64,000 bases of DNA, from the NCBI GenBank assembly GCA_963809535.1, contig CAWEJW010000001.1, forward strand, positions 1,150,105-1,214,104. Reading direction: 5' to 3'. How positions within the stretch are numbered: the stretch's first letter is position 1; every line of letters begins with the position of its first letter. Source of the DNA: an uncultured Actinomycetes bacterium (GTDB taxonomy: Bacteria; Actinomycetota; Coriobacteriia; Anaerosomatales; CAVRZR01). Under the pieces are notes generated by a model. It was given only the letters and a program-made list of their open reading frames with translations, made no database searches and had not been told where the DNA came from. Both the position numbers and the translations under genes were made by a program. Shown piece by piece: positions 23,593-40,545 of the stretch.

Positions 23593-24405
23593 TCAGAGCG
23601 GCAGGGCGCCACTTCGGTGCTTTACGAGGGTCACCGTCGTGCCACCCGTGTCTGAGGGCGAGAACTCGACCTTGTCCATGAGCGCCCGCATGAACATGAT
23701 CCCGCGACCCCCAGCCGCGTAGACGTCGCCATTGAAGGCGTGCTCTCCACTGAACCCGCAACCGCAGTCGACAACCTGGATCACGACGCGGTCGGCGAAA
23801 GCCTTCACGTCGATGTCCACCTCCGCGTCCGCATCCGAAGGCGAACCATGACGGACGGCGTTCGCGAGAGCTTCCCCCAGAGCCACCTTGACGTCGAAGA
23901 CCGCGGCTTCACCCAGTTCCAGGTTTGAGACGAGCGAGCAGACTCGTTCGCGCGCCGAGGAGAGAGCCTCGACGCGCGAGGGCATCACGACCCGCTCGAT
24001 CCAGAGCGGCTCTTCGGTCTCCTCCGGGAGCTCAAGACCCTCGAGCGCGGCGGAGACGCTCGGGCTGGTCGCCACGCTGGCTGCGACCTGGACGAGACCC
24101 GCGAGCTCGAGGATCCTCGTCACATCGCGGTTGGCGCCAGCGAGCACCATCCGACCGTTCAGGGGACGCAACCGTTTGTCCAGCCACACGAGGAGGCTCA
24201 ATGCTGAGCTATCCGCGTAGGTCACGCGGCTCAGATCAAGGACCACGTTGCGGCAGCCTCCGTCCAGCGCCGCCTCGAGCGATTCCTTGAGCTCCGGTAC
24301 GACCGAGGTATCGACATCACCGACCAGCGAGGCGACGCAGGCGCTAGGCCCCTGTTCCTCTACCAGTCGAAGCTCGAACGTCATGTTGCTTATGTTTCCC
24401 AACAT
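23593..24405 (-). CDS. Fusion of a STAS anti-sigma-antagonist domain and an RsbW/SpoIIAB-type Ser kinase (HATPase) domain
   Basis: STAS: FELRLVEE..LVGDVD..VVLDLSRVTYADSSALSLLV (phospho-Ser motif DSS). Kinase: GEALANAVRHG (N box), VVDCGCGF (G box). Start is ATG 24405 or 24384, both overlapping the tail of the upstream gene. Confidence 0.75.
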   Translation of the reverse strand: MLGNISNMTFELRLVEEQGPSACVASLVGDVDTSVVPELKESLEAALDGGCRNVVLDLSRVTYADSSALSLLVWLDKRLRPLNGRMVLAGANRDVTRILELAGLVQVAASVATSPSVSAALEGLELPEETEEPLWIERVVMPSRVEALSSARERVCSLVSNLELGEAAVFDVKVALGEALANAVRHGSPSDADAEVDIDVKAFADRVVIQVVDCGCGFSGEHAFNGDVYAAGGRGIMFMRALMDKVEFSPSDTGGTTVTLVKHRSGALPL

Positions 24406-27400
24406 CGTGGTCGTGCTCCCCGCTCTCGTCACTGTCCGTCGCGAGATGACTCTCGGTCTGCTTCACTCTCACGGCGACGATTGCGACGTCATCACGCAGT
24501 TGTCCCTGGGAAAAGCGGGAAAGGGCGCCCTGTAGATGCTCGACGACGCTCTTCGCGCTCCCCCCATATCGAAGGACGCGTCGCACGCGGCCTTCGCCGA
24601 AGAACCTATTCCCACTTCGAGCTTCTGTTACCCCATCCGTGTACAGCAGCACGATGTCGCCTCGGGAGACCTCGACCGTCTCCTCGTCAAAGTGCACGCC
24701 CGCTGATGCACCCAGAATGGGGCCTGTCGGGGTCAGTCTGGTGATATCCCCTGATCCGGGGCGGAACAGTAGACCCGGCGGATGTCCTCCGTTCGCGAAC
24801 ACCAAGCGTCCCTCGCGGGGGTCGAGATAGGCCAGGACGACCGTCAGGATATCCGTTGGGTCATCATTCGCCGCGACCATGTCGTTGATCTCGTCGAGAC
24901 ACCCCGCCGGACCCAGTCCCGCCGCTACGAGGGCCCTGATCGAGTACTTCAGCATCGATGTCTTGGTGGCCGCCTCTACGCCCTTTCCGCACACGTCCGC
25001 CATCGCCAACACGATCTGGCCACTCGGCGATCTGAAGAGGTCGTAGTAGTCGCCTCCGATCTCCGCCTCCTCGCCAGCGGGCTCGTAGGCGGTGGCTGCG
25101 TCGATTTCGTCGAACGCGGGGGTCTTGTCGGGAAGGATGCTCCGCTGCAGGGTCGCGGCCACCTCGTGTTCCTTGCTATACAGACGTGCGGTGTCGATCG
25201 CCAGCGCCGCCTGAGAGCCGAACGTCTGAAGCAGGCCCATATCTTCCTCGTCGAATGCAGCCGGTGTCGCCGAGAACACGCTCAGCACGCCGACGGCACT
25301 GCCTCGTGCGAGGAGCGGGACCGAGAGCAGCGCCCTGAGGCCAACTTGAGCGGCTGAAGCGGCAAGTGGCAGGCTGCTCGACGTTATGTCACGTAGAATG
25401 ATTGGCTCGCCCGTTGAGAAGACCCGGCCGGGCAGATCCTCTCCCGGCGCCACTTCAAGATGCAGGATGTCGGCCGAGATGACCCCGCGGGCCATCGCAG
25501 TCGTCACGGTGCGCTTTACCGGGTCATACGTCATGAGCGACACCGCGTCGGCGGCAAAGATCATCTGCACGACGTCCAGGACTCGGTTCAATACCACCTT
25601 CAGTTGAAGCGATGAACCGACCGCCTGGGAGATCCGGAATATCGTCTCAAGATTCTTCGCCCTCGCAAGCGAGCGCTCGAAGAAGTACGCGTTGTCCAGC
25701 GCAAGCGTGATGATCTTGACCGCCCCCTCGACGAGTTCCACGTCTCTGGGTAGGAACGGAGAGTCCTCCGCGAGGGCGACAAACGCGCCCCCGTACGGTT
25801 CGCCGGGCTCGATCCGCGCGACGATCATCTCCGAAGCGTCGAGCTTCTCGAGCACGAGGTCAGTCTCGACCATCATCCCGCGATCAAGTGTTCTCGATGC
25901 GTCGCCGTGTCCGAGGGCTGACTCGGCGGCCCGGAGCACTGCCTGCTCGAGATCGGGATCGTAGCTTTGTGGCAGGCCAAGCGCCTCGCGGTCCTCGAAC
26001 GCCATGATCGTCCTTCGGCCGTCCAGGCTGCGGGAGATACGTACGCTCACGGCCTCTAACGCGTCGGCGAATGCGACTGGCCGTACGAGCTCCTCGGCCA
26101 CGTCGCGCAGGGACTCTGCGATGCGACGGGATTCGATCTCGCGCTCGAAGAAACGAGACTTCGTGATCCCGATCGCGGCCTGGGACGCGAACGTGTGGAG
26201 CATCTCGGTCTCCGCGTCGGAGTACTCGGCGCGTCCGTGCTGCAGGACGACGAACACACCCAGCTGATCCGTGCCAGCAACCAGGGGGGCGACGAGCGCT
26301 CTGGACAGACCGTCGCCAACGTCCCACCCCTGCATTGGGAGGTCCGTCGCTTCGGGCGTCTGAACCCGTCCCGTCTTGAGCGCTTCTTCGAACGAGCATG
26401 ACCGCGCGCGAAGCACCGGCCCGAACGGCGGCTGAGACCCCGCGGAAGCACGGGCAAGGTACAGCGACTGTTGGCTCGAGTCGAGCAGGTAGACTGCTAT
26501 CGTCCCAGGTCCCAACAGGTGTCCAACAGCCTCCGTGATGGCGTCCAACACCTGGTCAAGGCGTGAGGCACCTGCAAGCAGTCGCGAAACGTCATGAAGC
26601 GCATTGAGTCTCAGTCCGACGGCATTGAAGGCCTCGGCGAGCCTGCCGACCTCGTCGTCGCGACCCGGGTTCAGCGGCGACACATACGCGCCCTCGGCCG
26701 CTTCATAGCTCGCCGTCTCGAGCTGTCGAAGGGGGTAGACGAGACGCTGGGCCACGAGCCATGCAGCCGCCAGGGCGATGCTGCCGCCGAACAACAGGAC
26801 CAGGAACGTCGGAATCGACGCACGCACCGATGTGGAGAGCGTAGCTCGGGCGGGCTCGACGACGAGAACGCGCCAGTCCAGCCCGCGTGGAGAGCTTAGC
26901 GCGGCCCACAGGCCCCGCATCGCGCCCACGGAAGGCGCGGTAACCGAGACCTGGCCCGGCTCGCCATCGGGCGACGGCGCATAGTCGGCAGACGATAGCC
27001 TGAGCATCGGCCCGTTCGCGCCCGACACAACGACGTTCCGACCGTCCACCACCTGTGCAGATCTTTGATCGGTCGTGGAGGAGACCCGGTTCGCCGTCGA
27101 GGCGAGGAACCCCGTGCGGATCCTGCCGAGCAACACGCGCTTCTGCCCGTTCTCCAGACGCACGTGGCGCAGCGCCCACAGCGTTGCCGGCTGCCCGGCT
27201 GCCGCGGATGAGTAGTGCACCTCCGTCTCGGCGAGGCCCTCTTTGGCCGCAAATGCAAAGGCGGACGTCGGCACCGTGCTATCGAGTGTTGGATACGAAG
27301 CGACGACGTCCCCACCCGGATTGATCAAAACCAGACCGTCGAGGAAGTCGGTCGCTCCTACGTATTGGGACGCCAGTAGGCGGCTGGTCACCTTGTTCGC

Positions 27401-27649
27401 AGGCACTTCCTGCAACGTGACCGCCGTATGATCGACGTGAGTTGCAGCCTCCGAAAGCCTGCCCAGCACTTCCGTCCGCATCAGATCGAGGTAGGCGCCT
27501 ATCCGCTCGCGACTCTGCGTGGTCGCAAGGCGATAGGACCCCACGAACGTCACGAGCAGGGCTGCCACGACCGTGGCGACACCGACGATGAGGGTTATCC
27601 GAAGGATGCTGTAGGCGAGGCTACCGGTCCTGTGGCTCGCTTTCCGCAT
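24344..27649 (-). CDS. Large membrane sensor: periplasmic Cache-like domain, HAMP, tandem GAF domains, PP2C/SpoIIE Ser phosphatase
   Basis: 1101 aa. N-terminal TM, second TM plus HAMP (YPLRQLETASYEAAEG..), GAF-like repeats, C-terminal GGDYYD..ADVCGKG..LYTDGVTEA..DDVAIVAVRV PP2C motifs. Confidence 0.85.
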   Translation of the reverse strand: MRKASHRTGSLAYSILRITLIVGVATVVAALLVTFVGSYRLATTQSRERIGAYLDLMRTEVLGRLSEAATHVDHTAVTLQEVPANKVTSRLLASQYVGATDFLDGLVLINPGGDVVASYPTLDSTVPTSAFAFAAKEGLAETEVHYSSAAAGQPATLWALRHVRLENGQKRVLLGRIRTGFLASTANRVSSTTDQRSAQVVDGRNVVVSGANGPMLRLSSADYAPSPDGEPGQVSVTAPSVGAMRGLWAALSSPRGLDWRVLVVEPARATLSTSVRASIPTFLVLLFGGSIALAAAWLVAQRLVYPLRQLETASYEAAEGAYVSPLNPGRDDEVGRLAEAFNAVGLRLNALHDVSRLLAGASRLDQVLDAITEAVGHLLGPGTIAVYLLDSSQQSLYLARASAGSQPPFGPVLRARSCSFEEALKTGRVQTPEATDLPMQGWDVGDGLSRALVAPLVAGTDQLGVFVVLQHGRAEYSDAETEMLHTFASQAAIGITKSRFFEREIESRRIAESLRDVAEELVRPVAFADALEAVSVRISRSLDGRRTIMAFEDREALGLPQSYDPDLEQAVLRAAESALGHGDASRTLDRGMMVETDLVLEKLDASEMIVARIEPGEPYGGAFVALAEDSPFLPRDVELVEGAVKIITLALDNAYFFERSLARAKNLETIFRISQAVGSSLQLKVVLNRVLDVVQMIFAADAVSLMTYDPVKRTVTTAMARGVISADILHLEVAPGEDLPGRVFSTGEPIILRDITSSSLPLAASAAQVGLRALLSVPLLARGSAVGVLSVFSATPAAFDEEDMGLLQTFGSQAALAIDTARLYSKEHEVAATLQRSILPDKTPAFDEIDAATAYEPAGEEAEIGGDYYDLFRSPSGQIVLAMADVCGKGVEAATKTSMLKYSIRALVAAGLGPAGCLDEINDMVAANDDPTDILTVVLAYLDPREGRLVFANGGHPPGLLFRPGSGDITRLTPTGPILGASAGVHFDEETVEVSRGDIVLLYTDGVTEARSGNRFFGEGRVRRVLRYGGSAKSVVEHLQGALSRFSQGQLRDDVAIVAVRVKQTESHLATDSDESGEHDHDVGKHKQHDVRASTGRGTGA

Positions 27650-27763: not shown

Positions 27764-28489
27764 TCAGATCTGGAATGACGGCAGGACCCGCGTAAGCCAG
27801 CCCGTGATGAGACCGAGTCTTCCTGTGAAGATCAGAACACCCAGCGCCATCAAGAGCGCGCCAGCCACTCTGTTGATGACCAGGGCATGGCGGTTGAGCC
27901 AGCGCAGCAGGCCGCGCACCCTCCCGAAGAGCAAGGCGGTCAGCACGAAGGGCACGCCCAGTCCCAGAGAGTAGGTCAGAAGCAGCAACGCTCCGCGCAC
28001 GGCGTCCCCGCTGCTCGCCGCGAGGAACAGGATGGCGCCGAGAATGGGACCCACGCACGGCGTCCAGCCCGCCGCGAACGCCATCCCCATGACAAGCGCC
28101 GCTGCTCGGCCAAATGTGCGTGACTTCTCGAGTCCAACACGAGCTTCCCCATAGAGCCAGGGGACTTTGATGACTCCGGTCAACAGCAGGCCGAACGCGA
28201 AGACGACAACGCCCGCTACGCGCATGAGCTCCGAACGGTACTCCCTCAGGAACTGCCCGAGAACCGAGGCCGAGACACCGAGCGCCACGAAGATGATCGA
28301 GAACCCGGCAACGAAGAGCAGACTGGGCAGAAGAACGGCCGACACACTCGGCCGTTCTTCTGCAAGCTCCGTCGTCGTCAGGCCTGTCATGAACGACAGA
28401 TAACCGGGGATGATCGGCAGAACACACGGTGACAAGAACGAGAGCAGACCCGCAGCGAACGCCGCGCCGAACCCCACAGAGCCTTCCAT
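27764..28489 (-). CDS. ccdA: Cytochrome c biogenesis thiol-disulfide transporter CcdA (DsbD family)
   Basis: LLSFLSPCVLPIIPGYLSF and GWTPCVGPILGAIL motifs. ATG 28489 follows GGAGGTGTG. Confidence 0.85.
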   Translation of the reverse strand: MEGSVGFGAAFAAGLLSFLSPCVLPIIPGYLSFMTGLTTTELAEERPSVSAVLLPSLLFVAGFSIIFVALGVSASVLGQFLREYRSELMRVAGVVVFAFGLLLTGVIKVPWLYGEARVGLEKSRTFGRAAALVMGMAFAAGWTPCVGPILGAILFLAASSGDAVRGALLLLTYSLGLGVPFVLTALLFGRVRGLLRWLNRHALVINRVAGALLMALGVLIFTGRLGLITGWLTRVLPSFQI

Positions 28490-28525
28490 CACACCTCCGG
28501 TGGCCCGACGCGCCGGCACTTCGCC

Positions 28526-28750
28526 TTAGGCGACCTCTGCCTCATATCCTGCGGAGCGGATAGCGGCAAGGAGGTCGTCAACCGAAACGACCTGTTGGTC
28601 GTAGCGCACCTCAGTCATGCCACTCGCGAGGTCCGTTCGCGAATCCTCGACGCCGGGCAAGTCCCCAAGCGTCATGTCCACCAGCATCGAGCACGACCGG
28701 CAGTGCATACCGCTCGTCTTCAGTCGGATGACAGCAGTGTTGTCCGCCAT
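28526..28750 (-). CDS. Heavy-metal-associated (HMA) domain protein, CopZ-like
   Basis: 74 aa with a GMHCRSC metal-binding loop in a ferredoxin-like betaalphabetabetaalphabeta pattern. Confidence 0.85.
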   Translation of the reverse strand: MADNTAVIRLKTSGMHCRSCSMLVDMTLGDLPGVEDSRTDLASGMTEVRYDQQVVSVDDLLAAIRSAGYEAEVA

Positions 28751-28889: not shown

Positions 28890-29249
28890 TCAGAGCGGGA
28901 TGTCCTCGGCCGGCGACAGTGGGACGCCGCTCTCGACGTGCGTCATCGCTCCGCAGTACGGGCACAGTCGCCACTCTTCGGCCAAAGACCGCCCGCAGTC
29001 GGTACAGCGACCACCCAGCACCACGTCGGCCCGTGTTCCCGCGCCGTCCTCCATGAGAAGGGCCCAGGCGACGCCTCCGGCGACGACACCGGCCAGCATC
29101 GGGATCATCCACCCGGCGGCTGTTGCGGCCGTGGATCCAACGAGGTCTGACCCGGAATTCAGCACGAGTAGACCCGCAAGAAAGGCCAGCGCGACGACAA
29201 CCCCTCCGAGCACTGCGGAGGCCAGCCTCATCACCTGTCTACGGGTCAC
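28890..29249 (-). CDS. Two-TM membrane protein with C-terminal zinc ribbon
   Basis: CTDCG..N12..CPYCG zinc ribbon after two hydrophobic helices. GTG 29249 follows GGAG-N5. The ORF-track start is TTG 29264. First gene downstream of the sigma-54 promoter. Confidence 0.6.
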   Translation of the reverse strand: MTRRQVMRLASAVLGGVVVALAFLAGLLVLNSGSDLVGSTAATAAGWMIPMLAGVVAGGVAWALLMEDGAGTRADVVLGGRCTDCGRSLAEEWRLCPYCGAMTHVESGVPLSPAEDIPL

Positions 29250-29290: not shown

Positions 29291-29306
29291 TGCAAGCGAT
29301 GTGCCA
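29291..29306 (-). promoter_or_regulatory. Sigma-54 (-24/-12) promoter
   Basis: Reverse strand cTGGCACATCGCTTGCA matches YTGGCAC-N5-TTGCA at every conserved position. It lies in the 76-bp gap between the activator gene stop (29341) and the zinc-ribbon ORF (track start 29264). Confidence 0.7.
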
Positions 29307-29340
29307 GCGTAAACACGTTCAGCGCAGGTTCAAGACGTGG

Positions 29341-30687
29341 TCACAGTCCCAGCCGCGTCATCCGCGCCTCAAGCGTCTTGGCCGTCAGCCCCACGAGCTT
29401 GGCGGCCTTCGGAACGTTCCCTCCCGTGCGGTTGAGCGCTTGGCGCATGAGGTCGAGCTCGACCTCCTCCAGATCGATACCGTCCTCGGGCAGAGCGATA
29501 TTGCTCGCCGACGGCGCTATCGATACCGCACCCGCTCGCACTTCGGCCGGAAGGTCGCTCACCTGGACCTCATCGCCGTGCGAGAGGATAACCACGCGCT
29601 CGATGCTGTTCTCCAGTTCGCGGATGTTGCCGGGCCACTGGTATGTGACGAGCGCTTCCATCGCGTCAGGCGCGATTGTCTTGGCGCCGGCGTTGAATTT
29701 CTCAAGGAAGTGAGCGACCAGGAGCGGGACTTCCCCCGGCCGCTGGCGCAGTGGCGGGAGCGTCACAGGCACGACGTTCAGCCGATAGAAGAGGTCCTCA
29801 CGGAACTCTCCGTCGGCGATGAGTTGCTGCAGGTCCTGGTTGGTCGCCGCAAGGATTCTCACGTCGACGTCGATGGAGCGCGTTCCGCCGAGACGTTCGA
29901 AGCTCCTCTCCTGCAGTACCCTCAGAAGCTTCACCTGGACTGCAGGCGTGACGTCCCCGATCTCGTCGAGGAACAGCGTCCCGCCGTTGGCCATCTCGAA
30001 GCGTCCAGGTTTGGCTGTCATCGCCCCGGTGAAAGCGCCTTTCTCATATCCGAATAGCTCGCTCTCCAAAAGCGTTTCTGGAAGCGCGCCGGCACTGACC
30101 GACACAAAGGGCCTGGTCGCGCGCTCGGAAAGGTTGTGGATCGCGCGGGCGATGAGCTCCTTGCCCGTGCCGGACTCGCCGTAGATCATCACGGTTGCGC
30201 TCGTTGCGGCAACCTTGCGCACCGTCTCTAGGATCTCGATCATCTTCGGATCGGCGGCGACGATCCCCTCCACGTCGTACTCGCGATCGATCTCCTGACG
30301 CAAGCGCTCGACCTCGGCCGCCAGGCCGCTGTACTCCAGGGCCTTGTGGATCGCGAGCTTCAGCTCCTCGAGATCGAACGGCTTCGTCAGGTACTCGGTC
30401 GCGCCCGACTTCATGGCCTCAACCGCGGTCGCAACGTTCCCGTGAGCCGTGAGCATGATGATCGGGAATGACAGGCCCTTCGCCCGGATGCGGCGAAGCA
30501 CTTCCATACCGTCCGGTGCCGGCATCCGGTGATCCAGCACCATGATGTCGGGCGCGGACTCGGCGACTGCCTCGAGGGCCTCCTTGCCATCAGCCGCGGC
30601 GACGATCTCGTAGTCGCTCTCAAGCGCCTGGCTGAGAACCCAGCGCATGTTCTTCTCGTCGTCGACGATCATGACACGCCGTTTCAT
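29341..30687 (-). CDS. Sigma-54-dependent response regulator (REC-AAA+-HTH, NtrC family)
   Basis: ATG 30687 in ORF 29341..30909. MIVDDE..MLTAHG receiver, GESGTGKE Walker A, EKGAFTGA (GAFTGA loop), C-terminal Fis-type HTH. Confidence 0.9.
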   Translation of the reverse strand: MKRRVMIVDDEKNMRWVLSQALESDYEIVAAADGKEALEAVAESAPDIMVLDHRMPAPDGMEVLRRIRAKGLSFPIIMLTAHGNVATAVEAMKSGATEYLTKPFDLEELKLAIHKALEYSGLAAEVERLRQEIDREYDVEGIVAADPKMIEILETVRKVAATSATVMIYGESGTGKELIARAIHNLSERATRPFVSVSAGALPETLLESELFGYEKGAFTGAMTAKPGRFEMANGGTLFLDEIGDVTPAVQVKLLRVLQERSFERLGGTRSIDVDVRILAATNQDLQQLIADGEFREDLFYRLNVVPVTLPPLRQRPGEVPLLVAHFLEKFNAGAKTIAPDAMEALVTYQWPGNIRELENSIERVVILSHGDEVQVSDLPAEVRAGAVSIAPSASNIALPEDGIDLEEVELDLMRQALNRTGGNVPKAAKLVGLTAKTLEARMTRLGL

Positions 30688-30703
30688 CTGCGATCCTCTC
30701 GGT

Positions 30704-32233
30704 TCACTCTTCGACCGCGGTTGGAAGGGACACGCGGAACGTCGTGCCCTGCTCGCCGCTCTCGACTTCGATGTGCCCGCCGTGCTCGTCGACGATCCGG
30801 TGGACGATCGTGAGTCCCAGACCTGTCCCGCCGGTCCTTCGAGAGTAGAAAGGATCGAAGATCTTCGTGAGGTCTTGCGCCGGTATCCCCGGTCCATTGT
30901 CAGCGACATCTACCCGAACGAAGTCCCCGTCGCTCTTCGTCGAGATCATGATCCTGCCGCCGGCCGTCTGCATCGCCTGCACCGCATTGGTCACGAGGTT
31001 CAGAAAGACCTGCTTGAGCTGGTCGGGATCGGCCAGCACAGGAGGAAGATCAGGTTCGTTCACACGCTCGATCTCGACGTCCCCTTGTGTTGCGAACCTC
31101 TTCGTGAACAACAGCACGTCATCCAGGACTGACTCGACGTCAGTGTGTACCAAGGTCGGCGTGCTGGGCCGACCGAAATCGAGAAGCGCTTTGATGACCC
31201 TGTCGAGCCGGTCGATCTCTTGCTTGATGATCCCGGCTGCCTCCTCGATCCGCCGCTGGTCGCATTTTGCGTCCTCGAGCAGCTGCACCGATGCTCGGAT
31301 CACACCAAGCGGATTCCTCACCTCGTGCGCTACACCAGCGGTGAGCTCACCCATTGCAGCGAGGCGATCGGCCCGGATGAGCTGGTCCGTGAGAGCCTTC
31401 ACGTCGGACACGTCCTCGACGGTCACGACAGCGCCGAAGATCCTTCCTCCCACCGCGCGCATACGCGACGTCGAGGCCTGAACGTGCACCGTTCGGCCAC
31501 CCGCGGTCACGAGCGTGACCTCGCGCAGCGCCAGCGGCACACGACCCGAGAGGACCTTCGAGACATCCACATTGATGCCGCCGTCGTCTCGAAAGAGCGC
31601 CCCGATCGGTTTGGGCACCATGTCGAACTCTGACATGCCAAGCATCCGCTCAGCCGCCGGGTTCGCCGTCGTCACCGACCCATCGGGTCCGACCGTCAAC
31701 ACGCCGGAAGTGATCGATCGCAGGATCGACTGCGTATAGTCCTGGATGTTGATGAGCTGTATCGCGCGCTCCTCGAGCTTCTTATAGGCTTCCTCGAGTT
31801 GGAGGCTCACCTGGCGCAAGTCCCTGGTTCGCCGCTCCTCGTTGTCTCGAAGCGCTCCGAACAGCGCTCCGATGGACAGGAACATCGCTATCTCGAGGAG
31901 CGTCTCGAAAGTGCTGAGCTCCTCGTAGTCGAGCACACCGGACGAGCGGCTGATGAGCGCGTACAGCCCAAACAGGACCGAGCAGGCCGCACCGGTGATG
32001 ACCCCTCCGCGACGCCCGAACACGAACGCCGCGTAGACGATCGGGATGTAGTACAGGCGACGGTCCAGCTGGAGAAGAGCGCCGTTATACATCTCGTGCT
32101 TCGTGAAGACGAGCAGCAGCGTGATCGCGAGCACCATGACGCCGACGATGGCCGCAGCGCTGACCTGATACGCGCGCCGTTCGCGGCCGCTCTCTCTGGC
32201 AGTGGGGAACGGACGCTCTTCCGGTGGTGTCAT
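30704..32233 (-). CDS. Membrane PAS sensor histidine kinase (NtrB/AtoS-like partner of the activator)
   Basis: N-terminal polytopic domain, PAS (ILRSITSGVLTVGPDGSV), H-box AHEVRNPL, N-box NLVTNAVQA, DNGPGI, GTGLGL. Confidence 0.85.
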   Translation of the reverse strand: MTPPEERPFPTARESGRERRAYQVSAAAIVGVMVLAITLLLVFTKHEMYNGALLQLDRRLYYIPIVYAAFVFGRRGGVITGAACSVLFGLYALISRSSGVLDYEELSTFETLLEIAMFLSIGALFGALRDNEERRTRDLRQVSLQLEEAYKKLEERAIQLINIQDYTQSILRSITSGVLTVGPDGSVTTANPAAERMLGMSEFDMVPKPIGALFRDDGGINVDVSKVLSGRVPLALREVTLVTAGGRTVHVQASTSRMRAVGGRIFGAVVTVEDVSDVKALTDQLIRADRLAAMGELTAGVAHEVRNPLGVIRASVQLLEDAKCDQRRIEEAAGIIKQEIDRLDRVIKALLDFGRPSTPTLVHTDVESVLDDVLLFTKRFATQGDVEIERVNEPDLPPVLADPDQLKQVFLNLVTNAVQAMQTAGGRIMISTKSDGDFVRVDVADNGPGIPAQDLTKIFDPFYSRRTGGTGLGLTIVHRIVDEHGGHIEVESGEQGTTFRVSLPTAVEE

Positions 32234-33627
32234 CTGCGGCGCCTCGCCCAGGACGGCTCGATCCTGAGCTCCTCGCGGTACTTGGCCACGGTCCTGCGAG
32301 CGACCGTGACTCCCTCCTCCGACAGCATCTCGGCGAGCCTCTGGTCGGACAGCGGCTTCGCCGGATCCTCCTCGCGCACGAGCTCACGGAGCCGCTGTTT
32401 GACGCTCGTCGCCGCGACGTCCATGCCCGTGGTGGTCCTGTAGCCGCCTGAGAAGAAGTGCTTCAACTCGAACAGGCCGTATGGCGTCGCCATGTACTTG
32501 CCGGTCACGCCTCTGCTGATCGTAGAGAGATGCACGCCGATCTCGATGGCGACGTCCTCCAAACGCAATGGATGTAGAAGCCCTTTGCCGTCGTCGAAGA
32601 AGTCCCGTTGGACTTCCAGAATGATCTGCGTGATACGGCTGACCGTGTCCTTGCGACGGTCGACGTTTCGGATGAACGATTCCGCCGAGCGGATCTTGTC
32701 CTTCAGATAGCGGCGGGTCTCATCGTCCGCTTCGGATCCTGTCCTGAGCATGGCTCGGTACCGCGGACTCACCTTGAGCGTAGGAATGGCCTCGTTGTTC
32801 GCCGTGATGAGCCAGTCGTCACCGAATCGCCGAAGACTCACGTCCGGCACGATGTAGCCAGGTGAAGGACCTGGCGAGAACGCGCCAGCCGGGCGAGGAT
32901 TCAGCGACTTGAGTATCTCGACGACGCGCCGCACCTCGCCCTCGTCCACACGCAGCGCTCGTGCGACCTTGCGGAAATGGTTCGCGGCGATGTCGTCGAG
33001 ATGGTTCTGCACGATCCGCTCGAGCAGAGGTTCCTCGAGCTCCAGGTACTCCATTTGGATGGACAACGCCTCAGCCAGATTCCGCGCGCCAACGCCCGGA
33101 GGATCGAGCAGCTGCACGATCCGCAACCCCTCCCGGGCAGTCCCCTCGGACACACTGGCCAGCGCGGCGATCTCTTGGGGCGAGCCCAGGAAGAACCCGT
33201 CGTCGTCGAGCGAGCCGACCACCGCTTGCGCTGCGCGCAGCACGTCCTGTGGCACGTCGAGCATCGCAAGCTGGTCGAGCAGGTAATCATCGAATGACTG
33301 GACACCACCAACGAACTCCTCGGTGTTGGCGGTCTCAGCGTTGGGGTCCCGTGGCGCTACCTGCTCCATCGAGTCGAGGTCGTCGTAGAGATCGAGCCAC
33401 TCGTCCCAGGAGCGCTCCTCTTCGTCGGTGCTCTCTTGGAGTTCGTCTTCGCGCTCGTCTGGCTCCGTCTCGGTCTCATCGAGTTCGAGGACCGGGTTCT
33501 CGAGCATCTCGGCCTCGACGAGCTGCTGAAGGTCGGCTATGGGCATGGCGAGGATATTCAGGCCCTGATAGACCTGGGGTGAGAGCGTCACTCGCTGACG
33601 CATTTCTGGCCGTTGGCTGAGCTCCAT
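32230..33627 (-). CDS. rpoN: RNA polymerase sigma-54 factor
   Basis: ATG 33627 in ORF 32230..33762. MELSQRPEMRQRVTLSPQVYQGLNILAMP (region I), acidic region II, RpoN box ARRTVAKYREEL near the C-terminus. Stop overlaps the kinase start (ATGA). Confidence 0.9.
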   Translation of the reverse strand: MELSQRPEMRQRVTLSPQVYQGLNILAMPIADLQQLVEAEMLENPVLELDETETEPDEREDELQESTDEEERSWDEWLDLYDDLDSMEQVAPRDPNAETANTEEFVGGVQSFDDYLLDQLAMLDVPQDVLRAAQAVVGSLDDDGFFLGSPQEIAALASVSEGTAREGLRIVQLLDPPGVGARNLAEALSIQMEYLELEEPLLERIVQNHLDDIAANHFRKVARALRVDEGEVRRVVEILKSLNPRPAGAFSPGPSPGYIVPDVSLRRFGDDWLITANNEAIPTLKVSPRYRAMLRTGSEADDETRRYLKDKIRSAESFIRNVDRRKDTVSRITQIILEVQRDFFDDGKGLLHPLRLEDVAIEIGVHLSTISRGVTGKYMATPYGLFELKHFFSGGYRTTTGMDVAATSVKQRLRELVREEDPAKPLSDQRLAEMLSEEGVTVARRTVAKYREELRIEPSWARRRR

Positions 33628-33798
33628 CCCGGCCTCCGAGCTGCATATCTCCGCGCTGGCAGGGGGCGCCGTACAGCAAATAGTATACCGCCGACGGGCC
33701 CGCCCTACGCAGCCGGGAAGCACCTCCACGGGCACCGCCTCCCGCCTTCGCTGACCCGCCACTGCCAGGCCTAGCGATGGCAGTCGCAGCGTCGGACG

Positions 33799-34776
33799 TC
33801 AGTCTTGCGGAGGTAGCGCTGGAGCCGCGGCGCCCTGGGACTGAACCAGCACGATCGCCGCGATGACGAGCGCCCCGCCGAGGAGCTGCACGACGGTGAG
33901 CTTCTCGCCAAAGATCACGAATGCGGCGATCCCCGCCAGCACCGGCTCGAGCGTAGCCGTGATCGTTGCCGGCGTCGGCCCAATGAGATGCAGCGCCGTC
34001 AAAAAGGCGCCGAAGGGCACGATCGTGCTCACGATGGCGATGAACACGATCGCTGCTGCGGCGGCTGGGTCCGCGAATGCCTCGAGGACGACTTTGGGCC
34101 CCAGCGCGACGAGCCAGAAGAGCGCGGCGAAACCGAGGCCCCAGAAGAGCAGGTTCCACGGCGTGAAGCGCCGAGTCGCATACGTGCCCATCAGGGAGTA
34201 CGTGGCGAAGAGGACGGCGGACGCGAGCCCCCATGCGATTCCCGCTGCTGACACCACCAGACCACCACCGATCGCTCCCACGACAAGTGCGCACCCGACC
34301 ACTGAAAGGCTCACACCTGCCGGAAGTACCCAGGTCACTCGCTCGCGCAGGAACACGACAGATACGATCAGAACGAGCACGGGAGCGAGGTATTCGAGAA
34401 GGATGGCTGTCGCCACATTCGTAAGAGAGATGGTCTTGAAGTACGTGAAGTGCATGCCGGCAAGTGCGACCACGCCGAAGACCGCGAGGAACGGCATGTC
34501 TCGAAGCGAGACCTCGAGGTCCTTTCGGCGAGCTGCGAGCAGAAACGCCGCAAGCAGCAGAAAGGCCGAGAGCGCGCGGCCTCCGGCAAGCACAGCGGGC
34601 GGGACAGCGATGCCGAGCGGCTGCACGAGCCAGCTCTCCGGTACGTCGGCAGGCGCCGTGAACATCCACTTCGCGGTCAGGCCTCCCGCGGCCCAGCATG
34701 CCGCGGCGAATGCTGCGAGAAGGTAGCCGCGGGTTCGATGCTCGAGAGGTGGCGGCGGCCGGACGCCTTCAGACAA
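33799..34776 (-). CDS. EamA/DMT-superfamily transporter
   Basis: Ten hydrophobic segments with two EamA-like repeats. TTG 34776 overlaps the CDF stop. The ORF-track N-terminus is a shadow of the CDF gene. Confidence 0.75.
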   Translation of the reverse strand: MSEGVRPPPPLEHRTRGYLLAAFAAACWAAGGLTAKWMFTAPADVPESWLVQPLGIAVPPAVLAGGRALSAFLLLAAFLLAARRKDLEVSLRDMPFLAVFGVVALAGMHFTYFKTISLTNVATAILLEYLAPVLVLIVSVVFLRERVTWVLPAGVSLSVVGCALVVGAIGGGLVVSAAGIAWGLASAVLFATYSLMGTYATRRFTPWNLLFWGLGFAALFWLVALGPKVVLEAFADPAAAAAIVFIAIVSTIVPFGAFLTALHLIGPTPATITATLEPVLAGIAAFVIFGEKLTVVQLLGGALVIAAIVLVQSQGAAAPALPPQD

Positions 34777-35713
34777 GTCCGGACCTCTGCTCCTCGTTGG
34801 TCTTGTCCGCCTGGTACTCGTCGAACGGTTCCAGGTGGACGATGACGTCGGCAACACGATCGAAATGCTCGGCGACCGTCCGCTCCGTAAGCTCGGCGAT
34901 CCGGTGACCGTCGGCGACCGTGCGCGACGCATCCACCTGGATGTGCATGTCGACGTAGACCTCGGCCTCGGACCCGCGCGTCCGAACACTGTGGCAGCCA
35001 AGCACGCCTCCGACGTCGAGAGCCACCTCGCAGATCTCAGAGGCAGGGATCCGTGCCGCGTCGGACAGCGTCACGCTCGCTTCCTTGAAGACTTGCCAGG
35101 CGGTGTAGACGATCACCGCCGATACGATGAGCGCGGCAATGGCGTCGGCCTTGGTGTAGCCGAGCTTCACGAACACCAGACCGACAATAACGCCGATGCT
35201 GACGAAAGCGTCCGAGGCGGTGTGACTCGAGTCTGCGACGAGGATGGAGCTCCCGAGTCGGCGACCGGCACTCCGCTCCCACGCTGTCACCCCGAGGTTG
35301 ATCATGAGCGTGCCGATCATGATCGCGAAGGACACGGCCGTGACGGTAGGAGGTTCGCCGCCGCCCATCAATCGTTCGAAGGCGGCGCTCCCAACCCGAT
35401 AGGCCGCGAACACGAGCATCGCGCCGATGCCCGCTGACGCATAGGTCTCGTACTTCCCGTGGCCGTATGGGTGGTCACGGTCACGGGGACGCCCGGCCAG
35501 CCGCATGCCGATGAGCCCGACAACGTTGGACACACCATCGAACATCGAGTGAAAGCCGTCAGCCTGCATGGCGACTGAACCGGACAGGGTACCCCAGATG
35601 AGCTTCGCGAGAGCCACGAGCACGTTGAGGACAAGAACCGCCCACAGTACGAACCGTATGCTCCGTATGCGACCCGCAGCTGCTTCGCTGCCGGCCGGCC
35701 GGGAGTACCCCAC
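34769..35713 (-). CDS. Cation diffusion facilitator (CDF) metal exporter
   Basis: SGSVAMQADGFHSMFDGVSN (TM2 HxxxD site), HPYGHGKYE, SHTASDAFVS (TM5 site), C-terminal cytoplasmic domain. Confidence 0.85.
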   Translation of the reverse strand: MGYSRPAGSEAAAGRIRSIRFVLWAVLVLNVLVALAKLIWGTLSGSVAMQADGFHSMFDGVSNVVGLIGMRLAGRPRDRDHPYGHGKYETYASAGIGAMLVFAAYRVGSAAFERLMGGGEPPTVTAVSFAIMIGTLMINLGVTAWERSAGRRLGSSILVADSSHTASDAFVSIGVIVGLVFVKLGYTKADAIAALIVSAVIVYTAWQVFKEASVTLSDAARIPASEICEVALDVGGVLGCHSVRTRGSEAEVYVDMHIQVDASRTVADGHRIAELTERTVAEHFDRVADVIVHLEPFDEYQADKTNEEQRSGLV

Positions 35714-35743
35714 GTGCTTCGCCCCCGTGTTCGTTGCTACGCA

Positions 35744-35760
35744 ATACCCCTAGGGGGTAT
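35744..35760. promoter_or_regulatory. CsoR-type operator (ATACCCC-TAG-GGGGTAT) in the CDF/csoR divergent promoter
   Basis: 17-bp palindrome. Flanked by TATTAT (35758..35763, + strand, toward csoR) and CATAAT (35764..35759, - strand, toward CDF). TTGCTA lies 18 nt upstream of TATTAT. Confidence 0.65.
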
Positions 35761-35812
35761 TATGAGCCGGTATCGAGGTCATGCATATCCTACGCGAAAC
35801 ACGGGAGCAGTG

Positions 35813-36109
35813 ATGGCTGACGCGATCGGCACACATACGATGCAACCTGCGCAACGACAGTTGCTGAACCGCCTCAAGCGGCTCGAGGGCCAGATCCGAG
35901 GCCTTCAGTCCATGATCGAGTCGGGGCAGCAGTGTGAGGCGATCCTCACGCAGATCATGGCAGCGAAGTCCGCCCTCAACCAGGTGGGCATGCACATCAT
36001 CGGACACGCGATGAAGGAGTGCCTCATCGACGAGGAAGTCACCGACCGTGACGAGCTCATCGATGAGGCCATCAAGGTCTTCCTCAAGTACTCCTCGTGC
36101 GTGCAGTAG
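35813..36109 (+). CDS. csoR: CsoR/RcnR-family metal- (or persulfide-) sensing repressor
   Basis: ATG 35813 in ORF 35714..36109. LKRLEGQIRGLQSMIESGQQCEAILTQIMAAKSALNQVG..GHAMKECL carries the Cys..His..Cys ligand pattern, with His-Cys spacing one residue longer than in the CsoRs I recall. Confidence 0.85.
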   Translation: MADAIGTHTMQPAQRQLLNRLKRLEGQIRGLQSMIESGQQCEAILTQIMAAKSALNQVGMHIIGHAMKECLIDEEVTDRDELIDEAIKVFLKYSSCVQ

Positions 36110-37264: not shown

Positions 37265-38506
37265 ATGCCTGCCGGTCTGTGGGTAGCTCTCGTTGTCGGC
37301 GGCCTGGTTGCGGGACTGGGCGTCGTTGCCGCGCTGTCCTTCCCTGCCGGCCGCGAAGCTGTTGGTGGTATCGCTAGCCTCACAGGCTTCTTCCTCTCGG
37401 CATGGGCGCTCGGCAGGCTGACTGCCATATACGGCAGCTCTCAGACGCCTGGCATCGCTCTTGGCCTCGCCTTCGCCGCGGTGGTCGGCGGCTACTCTCT
37501 TGCGTCGGCCATGCTCTCGCAAGCGGCGCGCCGTCCGTCACCGCGACCGATCACTGGTGCAAGCGGCGACCGCACTGCCCTGTTGTTGCTGAGCGATGCC
37601 GAAGGCGAACTCTACCAACCTGCGGCGGCGGCCCTCGAGCTCGTGACGCTTCAAGACGACGACGTGCTGGAACTGGGAATCGTCGCGACCCCATTCCTGT
37701 TTGCCGCCCAGAAGGCGCGCTACCGAGCGATCGGGGGAAGCAGTCCCGCGCGGCGTCAGGTAGCAGAGATCGCCGAGGCCCTCGAGCGTACGTCTCCCGG
37801 ACTGCAGGTGGATCACTATGGCGCCGCCTGGTGTGACGGTCCGGGGAACCTGCTCGAGCGCGTGGAGGAGCTCGCTCGCGATGGCTACTCGCGCTTCATC
37901 GTCCAACCGCTGGCGGTGGCAGAGTCCCTCGAGATGCAAAGAGCGAAAAGCCTTGTCGATCGGGGTCGGCCGGACGAAGCCGGCATCCGCGTCGTCTACG
38001 CCCCGCCACTTCGGTCCGCGGCCGCGATCGCTGGCCTCATCGCCAGGCGGATCGCCGTCGGGCTCGCGGATCCAGCTGCGACAGGCATTGCGCTGGTGGC
38101 GCACGGACAGCCCGAGAGTCGCACCAAGCTGAACCCCACGTTCGATGAGGACGAGTCCGCGTTCCTCAATCAGATCAAGATGATCGCCACAGACAATGGC
38201 ATGCCGCCTTCGAATGTCCGGCTCGCCTGGGCGGATTGGCGCGATCCCGACGTGACGTCGACAGTACGGCATCTTGCCGCTCTCGGATGCACGAGGATCC
38301 TGGTCTCTCCCGCGAGCTACCCGGTGGACGGGGTGTCGACCTTGCTGGACATACCGATGGGGATCAAGCAGGCGCGGGTCGAACCCTCGGTCGCCATCGT
38401 CACGCTCTCCACGTGGCGTGACGAACCAGACGTCATACAGGCGCTGAGGGAAGGAGCGGTTGAATCACTGCGCGAGCTGGGGGAGCCTTCAGGCGGGATC
38501 GCCTAG
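37265..38506 (+). CDS. Membrane-anchored class II chelatase, ferrochelatase-like and divergent
   Basis: About 3 N-terminal TM helices, then RYRAIGGSSPARRQ (Y..IGG.SP motif) and ALVAHGQPES (SAHxxP-like). VSPASYPVDGVSTLLDI occupies the position of P.xFVxDHxETLxExD. SD is AGGAGGGG. Confidence 0.65.
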   Translation: MPAGLWVALVVGGLVAGLGVVAALSFPAGREAVGGIASLTGFFLSAWALGRLTAIYGSSQTPGIALGLAFAAVVGGYSLASAMLSQAARRPSPRPITGASGDRTALLLLSDAEGELYQPAAAALELVTLQDDDVLELGIVATPFLFAAQKARYRAIGGSSPARRQVAEIAEALERTSPGLQVDHYGAAWCDGPGNLLERVEELARDGYSRFIVQPLAVAESLEMQRAKSLVDRGRPDEAGIRVVYAPPLRSAAAIAGLIARRIAVGLADPAATGIALVAHGQPESRTKLNPTFDEDESAFLNQIKMIATDNGMPPSNVRLAWADWRDPDVTSTVRHLAALGCTRILVSPASYPVDGVSTLLDIPMGIKQARVEPSVAIVTLSTWRDEPDVIQALREGAVESLRELGEPSGGIA

Positions 38507-39222
38507 ACGGACTTGCACCGCTCCCAGTTCCACGCCTGCTGCCTGCGGATCTGGGGAATCCTGAACGCATAGCGCACAGCCATGCTCAGCCCCGCAGCGT
38601 TGCTCGAAGCGCGCGTCTCCAGCCGAGAGATACTGGTTCGGAGTTCCTCGGCAGTCGTGCCCCGGAACAGCGTGCATCCGGTGCCGATGCCCTTGAGCAC
38701 GTGGGCGTCGGACCCTCCCGTTGCCGCGATTCCCTGGCCCCCCGTGAACACCTTGGCGGCCATGCGATTCGCCCAGCCGAGGTATGGGATGGAGTTGTAG
38801 ACCTCCAGCGCGTGGAACGCGAGATCTCCGACAGCCGCGCCAAAGGTGCTGCGCCCGAACGGACCGAACACGCCACGGCCCGAGAACGGATGCGGAATGA
38901 CAGCGATGCCGTCCTGCTCGTCGATGGCGGCGAGCGTCTCGACAACGGACATGCCTTGCCGGATGGGCTTCTCCAGGAAGAGGCCGATGATGTGACCGGA
39001 GCTCGACGAGACCTCCTCGCCTACGATGATCTCAAAGTCGTACTGGTCCTCGAGGGACTTGGCGATGAGAGCCCCCTCGATGGTGTTGTGATCGGTGATC
39101 GCGATGACGCGCAGGTCGGTGTCGTGCTGGACGTAGTCCATGATTTCCGGAATCGATGCGAGGCCGTCGCTGTGATGGCTGTGGATGTGTATGTCTGCCC
39201 TGCTCCAGATGTCCGGCGTCAC
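38503..39222 (-). CDS. PHP-domain (polymerase/histidinol phosphatase-like) metal hydrolase
   Basis: ADIHIHSHHSDG, ITDHNT, PHPF, GGSDAH motifs. GTG 39222 follows GAAAGGGG-N6 (alternative ATG 39270). Listed only as the tail of the 680-aa ORF 38503..40545. Confidence 0.7.
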   Translation of the reverse strand: MTPDIWSRADIHIHSHHSDGLASIPEIMDYVQHDTDLRVIAITDHNTIEGALIAKSLEDQYDFEIIVGEEVSSSSGHIIGLFLEKPIRQGMSVVETLAAIDEQDGIAVIPHPFSGRGVFGPFGRSTFGAAVGDLAFHALEVYNSIPYLGWANRMAAKVFTGGQGIAATGGSDAHVLKGIGTGCTLFRGTTAEELRTSISRLETRASSNAAGLSMAVRYAFRIPQIRRQQAWNWERCKSV

Positions 39223-39386
39223 GCGGTGCCCCTTTCGGGAGTCTTGCGACGATTCCGCCCCGTGCCTCATGAGCAAACAGCGTACCTGCCAATTCCAGCC
39301 AGAACCGGGGAATCGCTGCTTCTCCACACGAGACGGTGCGGCGCGTATCGGGATTCGACCGACACACACACTATCGGCGCGCCTGA

Positions 39387-40545
39387 TCAGTGTCTGGAGG
39401 ACCACTCCCGAAGGCGCCTCACGCCCTCGTTCAAGCGCTCCAGGTCGGCGGCGTAGCTGATCCTCAGGAAGCCCTCGCCGCCGAGGTCCGAAATCGATGC
39501 CGGGCGCGACTGCGACCCCGGCCTCCTCGAGAAGAGCATGAGACAAAGCCAGGGAGTCGCTTCCCCACTGTCGCGCGTCGGCAAACACGTAGAATGCGCC
39601 GGTCGGTTCGCACTCGACCACAAGCCCGATCTCTCTGAGCGCCGGGACGAGGTATCTGCGACGCTCGTCATACGTCGCGCGCATGCGCGCTACGTCAGGC
39701 TGCGCGAAGGTCAGGGCGGCGATGCCCGCAACCTGCACGAAGTGATTCGCACACAAGAAGAAGTTCTGTTGGATCTTCTCGCAAGGCCGCACGAACTCGG
39801 CGGGCGCGATGAGGTACCCGAGTCTCCATCCGGTCATCGCGTACGTCTTGGAGAAGCCGTTGAGCACGAACGCGCGATCAGTGAACTCCAGGACGCTGTG
39901 CGCTCGCTCGACGAAGTCCAGGCCATGGTAGATCTCGTCGCTCACGATCCAGACAGCGTTGTCCTCGGCGATTCTCGCCAGCTCCTCGAGGTCCCCGGCT
40001 CGCAGGATCGAGCCCATAGGATTCGACGGGGAGTTGATCACGATCCCCCGGGTGCGAGGCGTCACGGCCGCACGTACCTCGTCCGGCTTGAACCGGAAGC
40101 CGTCCTCGGCCCGCACCGGAACGGGCACCGGCACGCCGCCGAGGAACGCCACGTAGTTGGGATAGGCCGGATAACAGGGATCCCCGATGATGACCTCGTC
40201 ACCTGGGTCGAGCAGCGCGCCGAACAGCAGCAGCATCGCAGGCGAAGTGCCCTGCGTGACGACGATGTGTCCAGGGTCTGCCTCGACTCCGTACGTGGAC
40301 CGATAGTGTGCGGAGACAGCCTCGCGCAGACTCGGAAGTCCCAGCGATTGGGTGTATCCGGTGTCGCCGTGCTCCAACGCTTCCTCAGCCGCGTGCTTGA
40401 TGACCTCCGGCGTCGGGAGGTCAGGGTCACCGATCTCAAGCCGCACGATATCGCGACCCTCCGCCTCGAGTTCCTGCGCCCGCGCGACCACGTCCATGAC
40501 CACAAACGGTCTGATCAGCTGTGCGCGCCGAGAAACGCCGGCCAC
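39387..40545 (-). pseudogene. Class I/II PLP aminotransferase (AspC-like) with an apparent frameshift near its 3' end
   Basis: Main frame reads ..NSPSNPMG..FSKTYAMTGWRLGY..APGIDFGP and then becomes Arg-rich. The canonical C-terminus GGEGFLRISYAADLERLNEGVRRLREW continues in the frame of ORF 39387..39671. The frames switch at about 39485..39492. Confidence 0.7.

Follow-up and report, generated by a model that had tools for sequence, protein, structure and literature searches.

A putative self-contained sigma-54 operon with its own kinase, activator and -24/-12 elements in environmental Coriobacteriia

Introduction

Does a phylum that is repeatedly described as lacking sigma-54 contain a lineage that possesses the factor together with a sensor, an activator and promoters of its own? 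This question was raised by a 64,000-nucleotide (nt) stretch of DNA from an uncultured Actinomycetes bacterium (hereafter the window), in which rpoN, the gene for sigma-54, is followed by the genes of a membrane PAS histidine kinase and an NtrC-type activator and then by a consensus -24/-12 promoter. According to Francke et al. (2011), the Actinobacteria are without a sigma-54 system (PMC3162934). Another survey of the same year reported rpoN homologues in two of 182 actinobacterial genomes (PMC3372290), and a survey of 2025 described the Actinomycetota as being without sigma-54 and ascribed this to their high G+C content (PMC12316311). The paper describing the order Anaerosomatales makes no mention of sigma factors (PMC9686372), and in the portions of the literature covered by our search the sigma-54 biology of Coriobacteriia appears to be undescribed.

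All components of the locus are of known kinds, and the rpoN gene call itself is not new, since the NCBI pipeline already names these proteins sigma-54. What is new is that a single operon, preceded by a -24/-12 element of its own, unites rpoN with the genes of its kinase and activator, that conserved targets are clustered around this operon, and that the lineage contradicts a repeated statement in the literature. Here, we compared the window with related loci and propose, from the sequence comparisons, that the cluster probably functions as a sigma-54 transcription module in a lineage of environmental Coriobacteriia (Actinomycetota).

The genes and sites described below are those of this one 64-kb stretch. 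A scan of one genome per GTDB species yielded 126 relatives, and the best 80 of these 126 (RpoN identity 67 to 89%; all metagenome-assembled genomes, MAGs) were used as 21-kb neighbourhoods, giving 1.44 Mb of related loci in total. Protein families were assigned with Pfam at gathering scores and with NCBIfam at equivalog cutoffs.

Results

A complete rpoN shares an operon with a kinase and an activator

The rpoN product shows the three-domain architecture of sigma-54, namely the activator-interacting region I, the core-binding domain and the DNA-binding domain, each above its Pfam gathering score (PF00309, 45 bits; PF04963, 167 bits; PF04552, 189 bits), and it scores 397 bits with the NCBIfam equivalog TIGR02395, whose cutoff is 277. 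Almost the entire protein can be aligned with solved sigma-54 structures (E = 2.5e-75). The RpoN box, which reads the -24 element of the promoter, had been recognized in a previous sequence-only reading of this stretch as ARRTVAKYR. It is present as ARRTVAKYRE, is invariant across 16 relatives, and is identical in the solved structures, where it was aligned onto chain M of structure 8f1i.

The kinase ATG (32233) overlaps the rpoN stop codon as ATGA, and the activator gene starts 16 nt past the kinase stop. This spacing, together with the Pfam domains of the two proteins, bears out the tight, overlapping unit of a kinase and a REC-AAA+(GAFTGA)-helix-turn-helix (HTH) activator that had been described earlier. 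Approximately four transmembrane (TM) segments occupy the N-terminus of the kinase, where weak Pfam matches to MASE1 and DUF4118 were found. The activator scores 239 bits against PF00158, 110 bits against PF00072 and 43 bits against PF02954, with its GAFTGA motif at residue 217. Among 68 activator orthologues, GAFTGA, Walker A and the receiver aspartate motif LDxxMP are kept in all 68, and the arginine-finger motif in 66. The cassette has a G+C content of 0.63 to 0.64, the same as its surroundings. The cassette proteins are complete and under constraint.

Within NCBIfam, the best match of the kinase is AtoS, and the closest families of the activator are AtoC, NtrC and ZraR, all below their equivalog cutoffs. 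AtoS and AtoC are the best matches of the two proteins, but the scores fall well under the cutoffs (350 versus 646 bits and 502 versus 714 bits), no ato genes lie nearby, and the sensor of the window, with its approximately four TM segments, has no obvious periplasmic domain. The matches to ZraS (203 versus 479) and ZraR (397 versus 760) are likewise below cutoff. By sequence, therefore, the pair would work like the AtoSC and ZraSR systems but is a member of neither. Neither a second activator nor a second rpoN was found in the window or in the 80 related loci.

A consensus promoter, P2, follows the activator gene

The promoter P2 (Table 1) lies 34 nt past the activator stop and ends 42 nt ahead of the start of a gene for a small zinc-ribbon protein. 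As had been noted from the sequence, it matches YTGGCAC-N5-TTGCA at every conserved position. It is the sole exact match to TGGCAC-N5-TTGCW in the window, for which shuffling gave an expectation of 0.03, with any match at all in three of 100 shuffles.

For the comparison of P2 we used 68 loci with a full activator gene plus the window. In 66 of these 69 sequences with the activator 3′ end, P2 is kept and its flanks are randomised: a loose form of the pattern is found 4 to 81 nt past the activator stop in 65, and one more (L043) carries it at the contig end. We estimate that the loose pattern would match by chance in a stretch of this kind with a probability of approximately 0.002 per locus. 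Every match turned out to be TGGCA[CT]-N5-TTGCA, stricter than the search pattern, so positions that the pattern left free are also fixed. The information content reaches approximately 1.6 to 2.5 bits at TGGCA and TTGCA and approximately 0 in the flanks. The adjoining bases follow the known consensus, with Y before TGG and A or G after TGGCAY, and more than five or six bases outside the element the information is essentially zero.

The three loci without P2 (L013, L070 and L079) are exactly those without the zinc-ribbon gene, and in them HMA or CcdA comes directly after the activator. Therefore, P2 and the zinc-ribbon gene are gained or lost together. The order rpoN-kinase-activator-[TGGCAY-N5-TTGCA]-zinc ribbon is syntenic in approximately 65 related genomes, and this synteny, together with the joint loss of P2 and its gene, strengthens the cassette reading that had been proposed from the window alone.

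Across loci, the zinc-ribbon start codon is mostly found 31 to 50 nt past P2. The gap between activator and zinc-ribbon gene had been given as 76 bp, which holds if the open reading frame (ORF) starts at TTG 29264; the orthologue alignment and a GGAG ribosome-binding site favour GTG 29249 instead, which widens the gap to 91 bp. The orthologues, of approximately 106 to 127 amino acids (aa), consist of a basic N-terminus, two TM helices, a short outer loop and a variable acidic linker. They conserve CxxC-x10-CxxC, an invariant ribbon CxxCG-x6-WR[LM]CP[HY]CG, and both TM segments. The positive-inside rule predicts a cytoplasmic location for the zinc ribbon. The zinc-ribbon Pfam matches of this protein are below the gathering score. 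The family evolves fast, and the 11 database homologues found are, wherever the source names them, all called hypothetical protein.

A second element, P1, precedes rpoN

A -24/-12 element, P1, ends 47 nt before the rpoN ATG in the window. The 170 nt upstream of rpoN were compared in all loci, and the form [TC]GGTA[TC]-N5-TTGC[TA] was found in 72 of 79 sequences, 24 to 62 nt ahead of the rpoN start; GG, TA and TTGC do not vary, and the flanking bases are random. The position of P1 ahead of rpoN suggests, at the level of sequence, that the operon is autoregulated.

Alternatively, P1, and perhaps also the third element P3 described below, could be a housekeeping extended -10 promoter (TGnTAnnnT, for example TGGTATACT) with a conserved initiation region, in which case the rpoN operon would be constitutive rather than autoregulated. 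TGGTATACT, TGGTATATT and TGGTACGTT all fit TGnTAnnnT. In a more distant clade, TGGTAC is preceded at a distance of 6 to 8 nt by a separate box, CATAAT or GAATAT, and for P3 a CCGATA motif lies upstream. Several features of the elements themselves also weigh against a sigma-54 promoter: seven loci, forming one clade, carry only GGGATAATG at the place of P1 and no TTGC; P1 and P3 have T for C at the fourth position of TGGCAC; in the window they begin with C and A, respectively, where the consensus has T; and P1 overlaps a TATACT hexamer, a plausible housekeeping -10. However, 72 of 72 sequences keep the second G of the GG of P1, a position that TGn leaves free (n), and 72 of 72 also keep the TTGC at exactly GG+10, which has no role in a housekeeping promoter. 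The final T of the would-be -10 hexamer is present in only 57% of sequences, and the GG-N10-GC frame of P1 recurs at P2 and P3 beside a sigma-54 gene. We therefore regard a purely housekeeping P1 as unlikely, and read the rpoN operon as probably receiving both a basal housekeeping and a sigma-54 input.

Intrinsic terminators were found at no intergenic position of the cluster, including the gap between P1 and the upstream gene for an EamA transporter. Since no terminator-like site was seen between EamA and P1, we also considered read-through into the rpoN operon from EamA and the gene preceding it, for a CDF metal exporter. A GC-rich hairpin after P1, visible in many loci, was discarded as a candidate feature; its folding energy is about that of shuffled sequence (mean z = -0.24), and it is weak in the window.

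A third element, P3, and the specificity of the pattern

On the rpoN strand, a few kilobases further upstream, lies the gene of a PHP-domain metallohydrolase, and the element P3 ends 49 nt before its GTG. An exact GGYAY-N5-TTGCW precedes the PHP gene in 50 related loci, and most of the remaining loci carry TGGTTC-N5-TTGC-type variants at this position that keep GG-N10-GC and TTGC. The PHP gene is the likely target of P3.

How specific is this pattern? GGYAY-N5-TTGCW has exactly three matches on both strands of the window, and these are P1, P2 and P3, each of which lies between genes on the gene strand, at a distance of 42 to 49 nt from the start codon that follows. By shuffling, 0.34 matches are expected, and one of 100 shuffles reaches three. 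In the related loci, 185 of 190 matches fall at the three orthologous positions; the five exceptions include a P2 at a contig end and a match before HMA. With respect to the GG and GC ten bases apart that mark a sigma-54 promoter, P2 is a full match, and P1 and P3 keep GG-N10-GC and TTGC with TGGTAY-type -24 halves. All three stand in the right orientation and position and are conserved beyond neutral expectation (P2 in 66 of 69 sequences, P1 in 72 of 79, P3 in most loci). The single target promoter reported by the sequence-only reading is thus a real match to the consensus, but the locus holds at least three conserved -24/-12 elements, two of which, P1 and P3, had been missed. The genomes that lost the zinc-ribbon gene still have rpoN, P1 and the two-component system, and P3 is also retained in L013 and L079; the zinc-ribbon gene is therefore not the only purpose of the system.

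Some other observations concern the surroundings of P3 and a fourth candidate. A (G)CCGATA motif recurs upstream of P3 in many loci, in most of them at approximately 14 to 45 nt, and in the window (approximately 39340..39385, minus strand) two direct CCGATA copies stand 21 nt apart, approximately 50 and 80 nt upstream of P3. The motif may represent a binding site for a regulator or a housekeeping -10 (GATAnT); it was not found upstream of P1 or P2. Nearby (approximately 39390..39500, minus strand), a class I/II aminotransferase gene seems to carry a frameshift close to its 3′ end, by sequencing error or as a real lesion; the expected C-terminus ...FLRISYAADLERLNEGVRRLREWSSRH followed by a stop lies in another frame, and the stop-to-stop ORF runs through P3 into the PHP gene. 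The candidate TGGCACGGGAATCGCA at 6903..6918, before a lipoprotein gene, was rejected as a fourth promoter, as it has one mismatch, is not conserved, and one such match is expected by chance. Both the lipoprotein and TGGCACGGGAATCGCA are absent from approximately 70 contigs related via the neighbouring radical-SAM gene, a set of mixed G+C that is not a valid lineage background. The lipoprotein-like gene behind it (6149..6875, minus strand; signal peptide with LVPGC) is split between two frames.

The adjacent activator and the search for its binding site

We infer that the adjacent activator serves all three promoters, because the synteny is strict and no other activator was seen in the window or in the 80 loci. 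The main weakness of this assignment is that no conserved enhancer site was found. Enhancer sites typically lie approximately 80 to 200 bp upstream of a promoter, and the stretch 29300..29460, which had been proposed for binding of the activator, contains no conserved site. Over the last 70 activator codons, the region in which a site serving P2 would be expected, the entropy of the third codon position ranges from 1.1 to 1.5 bits, with 1.18 as the mean of the gene, which indicates no constraint, and no dyad or 6- to 8-mer is common to the regions upstream of P1, P2 and P3 beyond what control regions show; both results speak against the assignment. An 18-bp perfect palindrome, GAGGTCGAGCTCGACCTC, at 29450..29467, approximately 150 bp upstream of the -24 of P2, was considered as an enhancer candidate and rejected. 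Among orthologues, between 0 and 6 of the 9 pairs are broken, and the palindrome arises from the way in which GC-rich codons spell the peptide EVELDL, the codons for E and L, and those for V and D, being mutual reverse complements. The activator site may be degenerate or situated elsewhere, or an enhancer may not be needed; enhancer-independent activation has been reported for some single-activator systems.

A different explanation is that P2 is a real sigma-54 promoter but that the adjacent kinase-activator pair is not its activator, or not that of P1 and P3, so that another enhancer-binding protein encoded elsewhere would act here and the local two-component system would control distant targets. 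The lack of a conserved HTH site upstream of any of the three promoters fits this explanation, and so does the extent of the window, which represents 64 kb of an approximately 1.44-Mb contig; other activators or promoters may exist elsewhere, which is a further point against our assignment. In contrast, the order rpoN-kinase-activator-P2 is strict in approximately 65 genomes, with P2 only 4 to 81 nt past the activator stop, and no further activator gene occurs in the window or in the 1.44 Mb of related loci. Moreover, in known systems activator genes are usually found beside their targets. We consider control by a distant activator improbable and retain the adjacent one as the probable regulator.

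Lineage of the locus

The assignment to Actinomycetota matters for the argument, and the earlier reading had left room for a genome that is really a Firmicute. Most of the best 80 loci, from many submitters, are labelled Coriobacteriia, Actinomycetota, Actinobacteria, Coriobacteriales or Anaerosomatales, and the closest RpoN relatives, where named, are called Coriobacteriia bacterium. NCBI taxonomy places the Anaerosomatales in the Coriobacteriia and in the Actinomycetota. The uvrC-rapZ-yvcK-whiA flank that had been noted is confirmed, with uvrC partial, and continues into gap-pgk-tpi-secG. This order is known from Mycobacterium and Streptomyces and is typical of Actinobacteria. Labels and gene order together thus place the locus in the Actinomycetota, as the sequence-only reading had supposed.

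Could this placement be an artefact, with a Firmicute-like contig or an rpoN that was mis-binned or recently transferred? Approximately 14 of the 80 related MAG records are labelled uncultured Eubacteriales (bacterium), in the same naming style and apparently from one assembly series. However, the labels of most other records, from many studies, agree with the placement, as does the gene order known from Mycobacterium and Streptomyces. In the same window, rpoN lies approximately 27 kb from whiA, and the exact RpoN is found on a contig of approximately 1.44 Mb; therefore, mis-binning is not an issue. The G+C content of the cassette matches that of its flanks, and synteny of the cassette persists as RpoN identity drops from 89% to 67%, so that any transfer would have to be old. 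We consider an artefact very improbable, and the Firmicute case is not supported.

Neighbouring genes

Nearly everywhere that a contig was long enough among the 80 loci, the order CDF-EamA-rpoN-kinase-activator-zinc ribbon-HMA-CcdA-phosphatase is kept (Table 1). Pfam confirmed the sequence of zinc-ribbon gene, HMA gene and ccdA behind P2 that had been described before. In many loci HMA follows the zinc-ribbon gene within less than 60 nt, and where the gap is short the two look co-transcribed. HMA may be read through from P2 or may be under a promoter of its own: in approximately nine loci with a long zinc-ribbon-HMA gap or inserted genes, a TGGCAY-N5-YTCGCA element stands before HMA, and in the window a housekeeping-type -10, GGGTACCTT, precedes it. 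In L026, L030, L037 and L067 (approximately +3300 to +8400 after rpoN), 1.4 kb and 3.4 kb of extra genes flank HMA between the zinc-ribbon gene and CcdA, and HMA has its own TGGCAY-N5-YTCGCA element.

Taken as a set, the neighbourhood comprises a CsoR/RcnR-like repressor, a CDF exporter, a thioredoxin, a CbiX/ferrochelatase-like protein, the PHP metallohydrolase, HMA and CcdA, and its conservation suggests a metal or thiol-redox and envelope theme. Downstream, the phosphatase and the STAS/RsbW fusion constitute a partner-switching module without an adjacent sigma factor gene; most relatives have this module in synteny with the sigma-54 cluster. No known RNA families were found in the cluster.

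Table 1. Coordinates of the sigma-54 cluster and its neighbours in the window.
Feature	Position	Strand	Description
P2, consensus sigma-54 promoter	29291..29307	-	cTGGCACATCGCTTGCA (= cTGGCACatcgcTTGCA); TGGCAC-N5-TTGCA; predicted transcription start site (TSS) near 29281
P1, sigma-54-type -24/-12 element	33675..33690	-	cGGTATactatTTGCT (= cGGTATACTATTTGCT); cGGTAT-N5-TTGCT; predicted TSS near 33664
P3, sigma-54-type -24/-12 element	39272..39287	-	aGGTACgctgtTTGCT (= aGGTACGCTGTTTGCT); aGGTAC-N5-TTGCT; predicted TSS near 39261
rpoN (sigma-54)	32230..33627	-	465 aa; Pfam Sigma54_AID, CBD, DBD; TIGR02395
Membrane PAS histidine kinase	30704..32233	-	509 aa; Pfam PAS_4, HisKA, HATPase_c
NtrC-type activator	29341..30687	-	448 aa; REC, Sigma54_activat, AAA_lid, HTH_8 (Pfam)
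Two-TM protein with C-terminal C4 zinc ribbon	28890..29249	-	119 aa from GTG 29249; putative P2 target
CopZ-like HMA metallochaperone gene	28526..28750	-	Pfam HMA; NCBIfam CopZ-like matches below cutoff
CcdA/DsbD-type thiol-disulfide transporter gene	27764..28519	-	Pfam DsbD_TM; packed against HMA; syntenic in most loci
HAMP-GAF-GAF-PP2C (SpoIIE-type) phosphatase	24344..27649	-	1101 aa; Pfam, NCBIfam; syntenic in most loci
Fused STAS / RsbW-like kinase	23593..24432	-	STAS anti-sigma-antagonist and anti-sigma kinase domains in one protein; Pfam, NCBIfam
Upstream context: EamA transporter, CDF metal exporter and CsoR/RcnR-type repressor	33799..36109	.	EamA and CDF on the rpoN strand; Pfam; CDF-EamA-rpoN synteny in most loci
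CsoR/RcnR-type metal repressor	35714..36109	+	Divergent; Pfam
PHP-domain metallohydrolase gene, CehA/McbA family domain	38503..39222	-	239 aa; Pfam PHP_C; NCBIfam NF038032, 89.5 bits versus cutoff 80
yvcK (CofD family)	61601..62605		In the uvrC-rapZ-yvcK-whiA flank

Further features were noted elsewhere in the window. Where the CDF and EamA ORFs overlap (34666..34753, plus strand), ARAGORN reported an 88-nt tRNA-Ala(AGC) that was not found by the Rfam tRNA model and is probably a false positive. Two Moco (molybdenum/tungsten cofactor) riboswitches, at 10595..10719 (plus strand) and 5996..6122 (minus strand), exceed the gathering score of Rfam. Downstream of one come a 515-aa ORF of unknown function and then the gene of an MFS_MOT1 molybdate transporter; the other stands before a PBP/permease/TOBE-ATPase ABC transporter. 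At 17497..20578 (minus strand), a cluster of Flavoprotein-family (UbiX-like), UbiA-prenyltransferase and UbiD-decarboxylase genes, apparently a prenylated-flavin decarboxylase system, adjoins a phosphodiesterase-family gene and an HAD hydrolase gene.

Discussion

Overall, after analyzing the sequence and its conservation, we propose a putative mechanism for this module. The membrane PAS kinase would sense a signal, perhaps a membrane or a metal/thiol cue, and phosphorylate the REC domain of the activator. Powered by ATP and acting through its GAFTGA loop, the activated AAA+ ring would then convert closed complexes of sigma-54 RNA polymerase at the three local -24/-12 promoters P1, P2 and P3 into open ones. 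Opening at P2 would drive the zinc-ribbon gene and, in many genomes, HMA-CcdA behind it; P3 would drive the PHP metallohydrolase gene, and P1 the rpoN-kinase-activator operon itself, which would make the module self-amplifying. Basal expression of the rpoN operon would come from the overlapping or adjacent -10, or from CDF-EamA read-through. Polymerase with sigma-54 bound at P1 might mainly activate the operon (positive feedback) or might also block the basal promoter. As a speculation, the zinc-ribbon protein might, in the manner of ZraP or the Psp proteins, exert feedback on the kinase.

Among known systems, ZraP-ZraS-ZraR, which responds to envelope and zinc stress in Escherichia coli in a sigma-54-dependent manner, resembles the module in several respects. 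Both have a membrane kinase and a REC-AAA+-HTH_8 activator, with sigma-54 promoters before the kinase-activator operon and before the gene of a small envelope-associated metal-binding protein, and both have a metal-related neighbourhood; ZraS and ZraR are also among the better NCBIfam matches, albeit below the equivalog cutoffs. However, here rpoN is the first gene of the operon that appears to be autoregulated, the promoters are in tandem on one strand rather than divergent, and no enhancer sites are visible. The target is a two-TM protein with a predicted cytoplasmic zinc ribbon, unrelated to the periplasmic ZraP.

The Hk2-Rrp2-RpoN-RpoS pathway of Borrelia and CtcB-CtcC of Chlamydia also combine one sigma-54, one kinase and one activator. 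These bacteria have very few sigma-54 target promoters, and their enhancers are dispensable or absent, which fits the lack of an enhancer found here. Their rpoN is not known to lie in the kinase-activator operon, whereas here it lies inside, and CtcC has no DNA-binding domain, whereas the activator of the window keeps HTH_8. Francke et al. listed a single activator in Borrelia and a single one in Chlamydia (PMC3162934). Unlike in both, the targets here flank rpoN, and rpoN has a -24/-12 element of its own.

A circuit in which rpoN is expressed from a sigma-54 promoter is known from Rhodobacter capsulatus, where the nifU2-rpoN operon is autoactivated by positive feedback. A dedicated sigma-54 with one cognate activator and one target has been described in Cereibacter sphaeroides, as RpoN3-AprX-xrpA (PMC11999139). 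The module resembles the former in its rpoN behind a sigma-54-type element and the latter in its dedicated factor with one candidate activator. However, those are extra rpoN copies or nif-specialised circuits in Proteobacteria with a wide use of sigma-54. In contrast, the rpoN described here is the only one seen in the window and the 80 loci, shares an operon with its two-component system, and belongs to a phylum reported to be without sigma-54.

More tentatively, environmental Coriobacteriia, including Anaerosomatales/OPB41, might be a class-level branch that has vertically kept a complete sigma-54 system, reduced to one self-driven operon with a regulon of perhaps just three or four flanking promoters. 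We regard this broader picture as possible but doubtful.

If this broader picture were correct, no other self-contained, self-amplifying sigma-54 circuit known would be as compact, and the published view that the phylum is without functional sigma-54 owing to its high G+C would be directly contradicted. The locus itself corrects a textbook-level generalisation: in at least 126 species-level genomes of a lineage with 62 to 66% G+C, the factor and its activator are kept together with promoters that are sharply conserved. The circuit is very small, with factor, sensor, activator and targets within 11 kb, which makes it convenient for dissecting the autoregulation of a sigma factor by its own promoter, and it could serve as a portable expression switch for Actinobacteria that is orthogonal and tightly off. 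Finally, it would link sigma-54 to a new theme in a Gram-positive anaerobe, a conserved set of metal and thiol genes.

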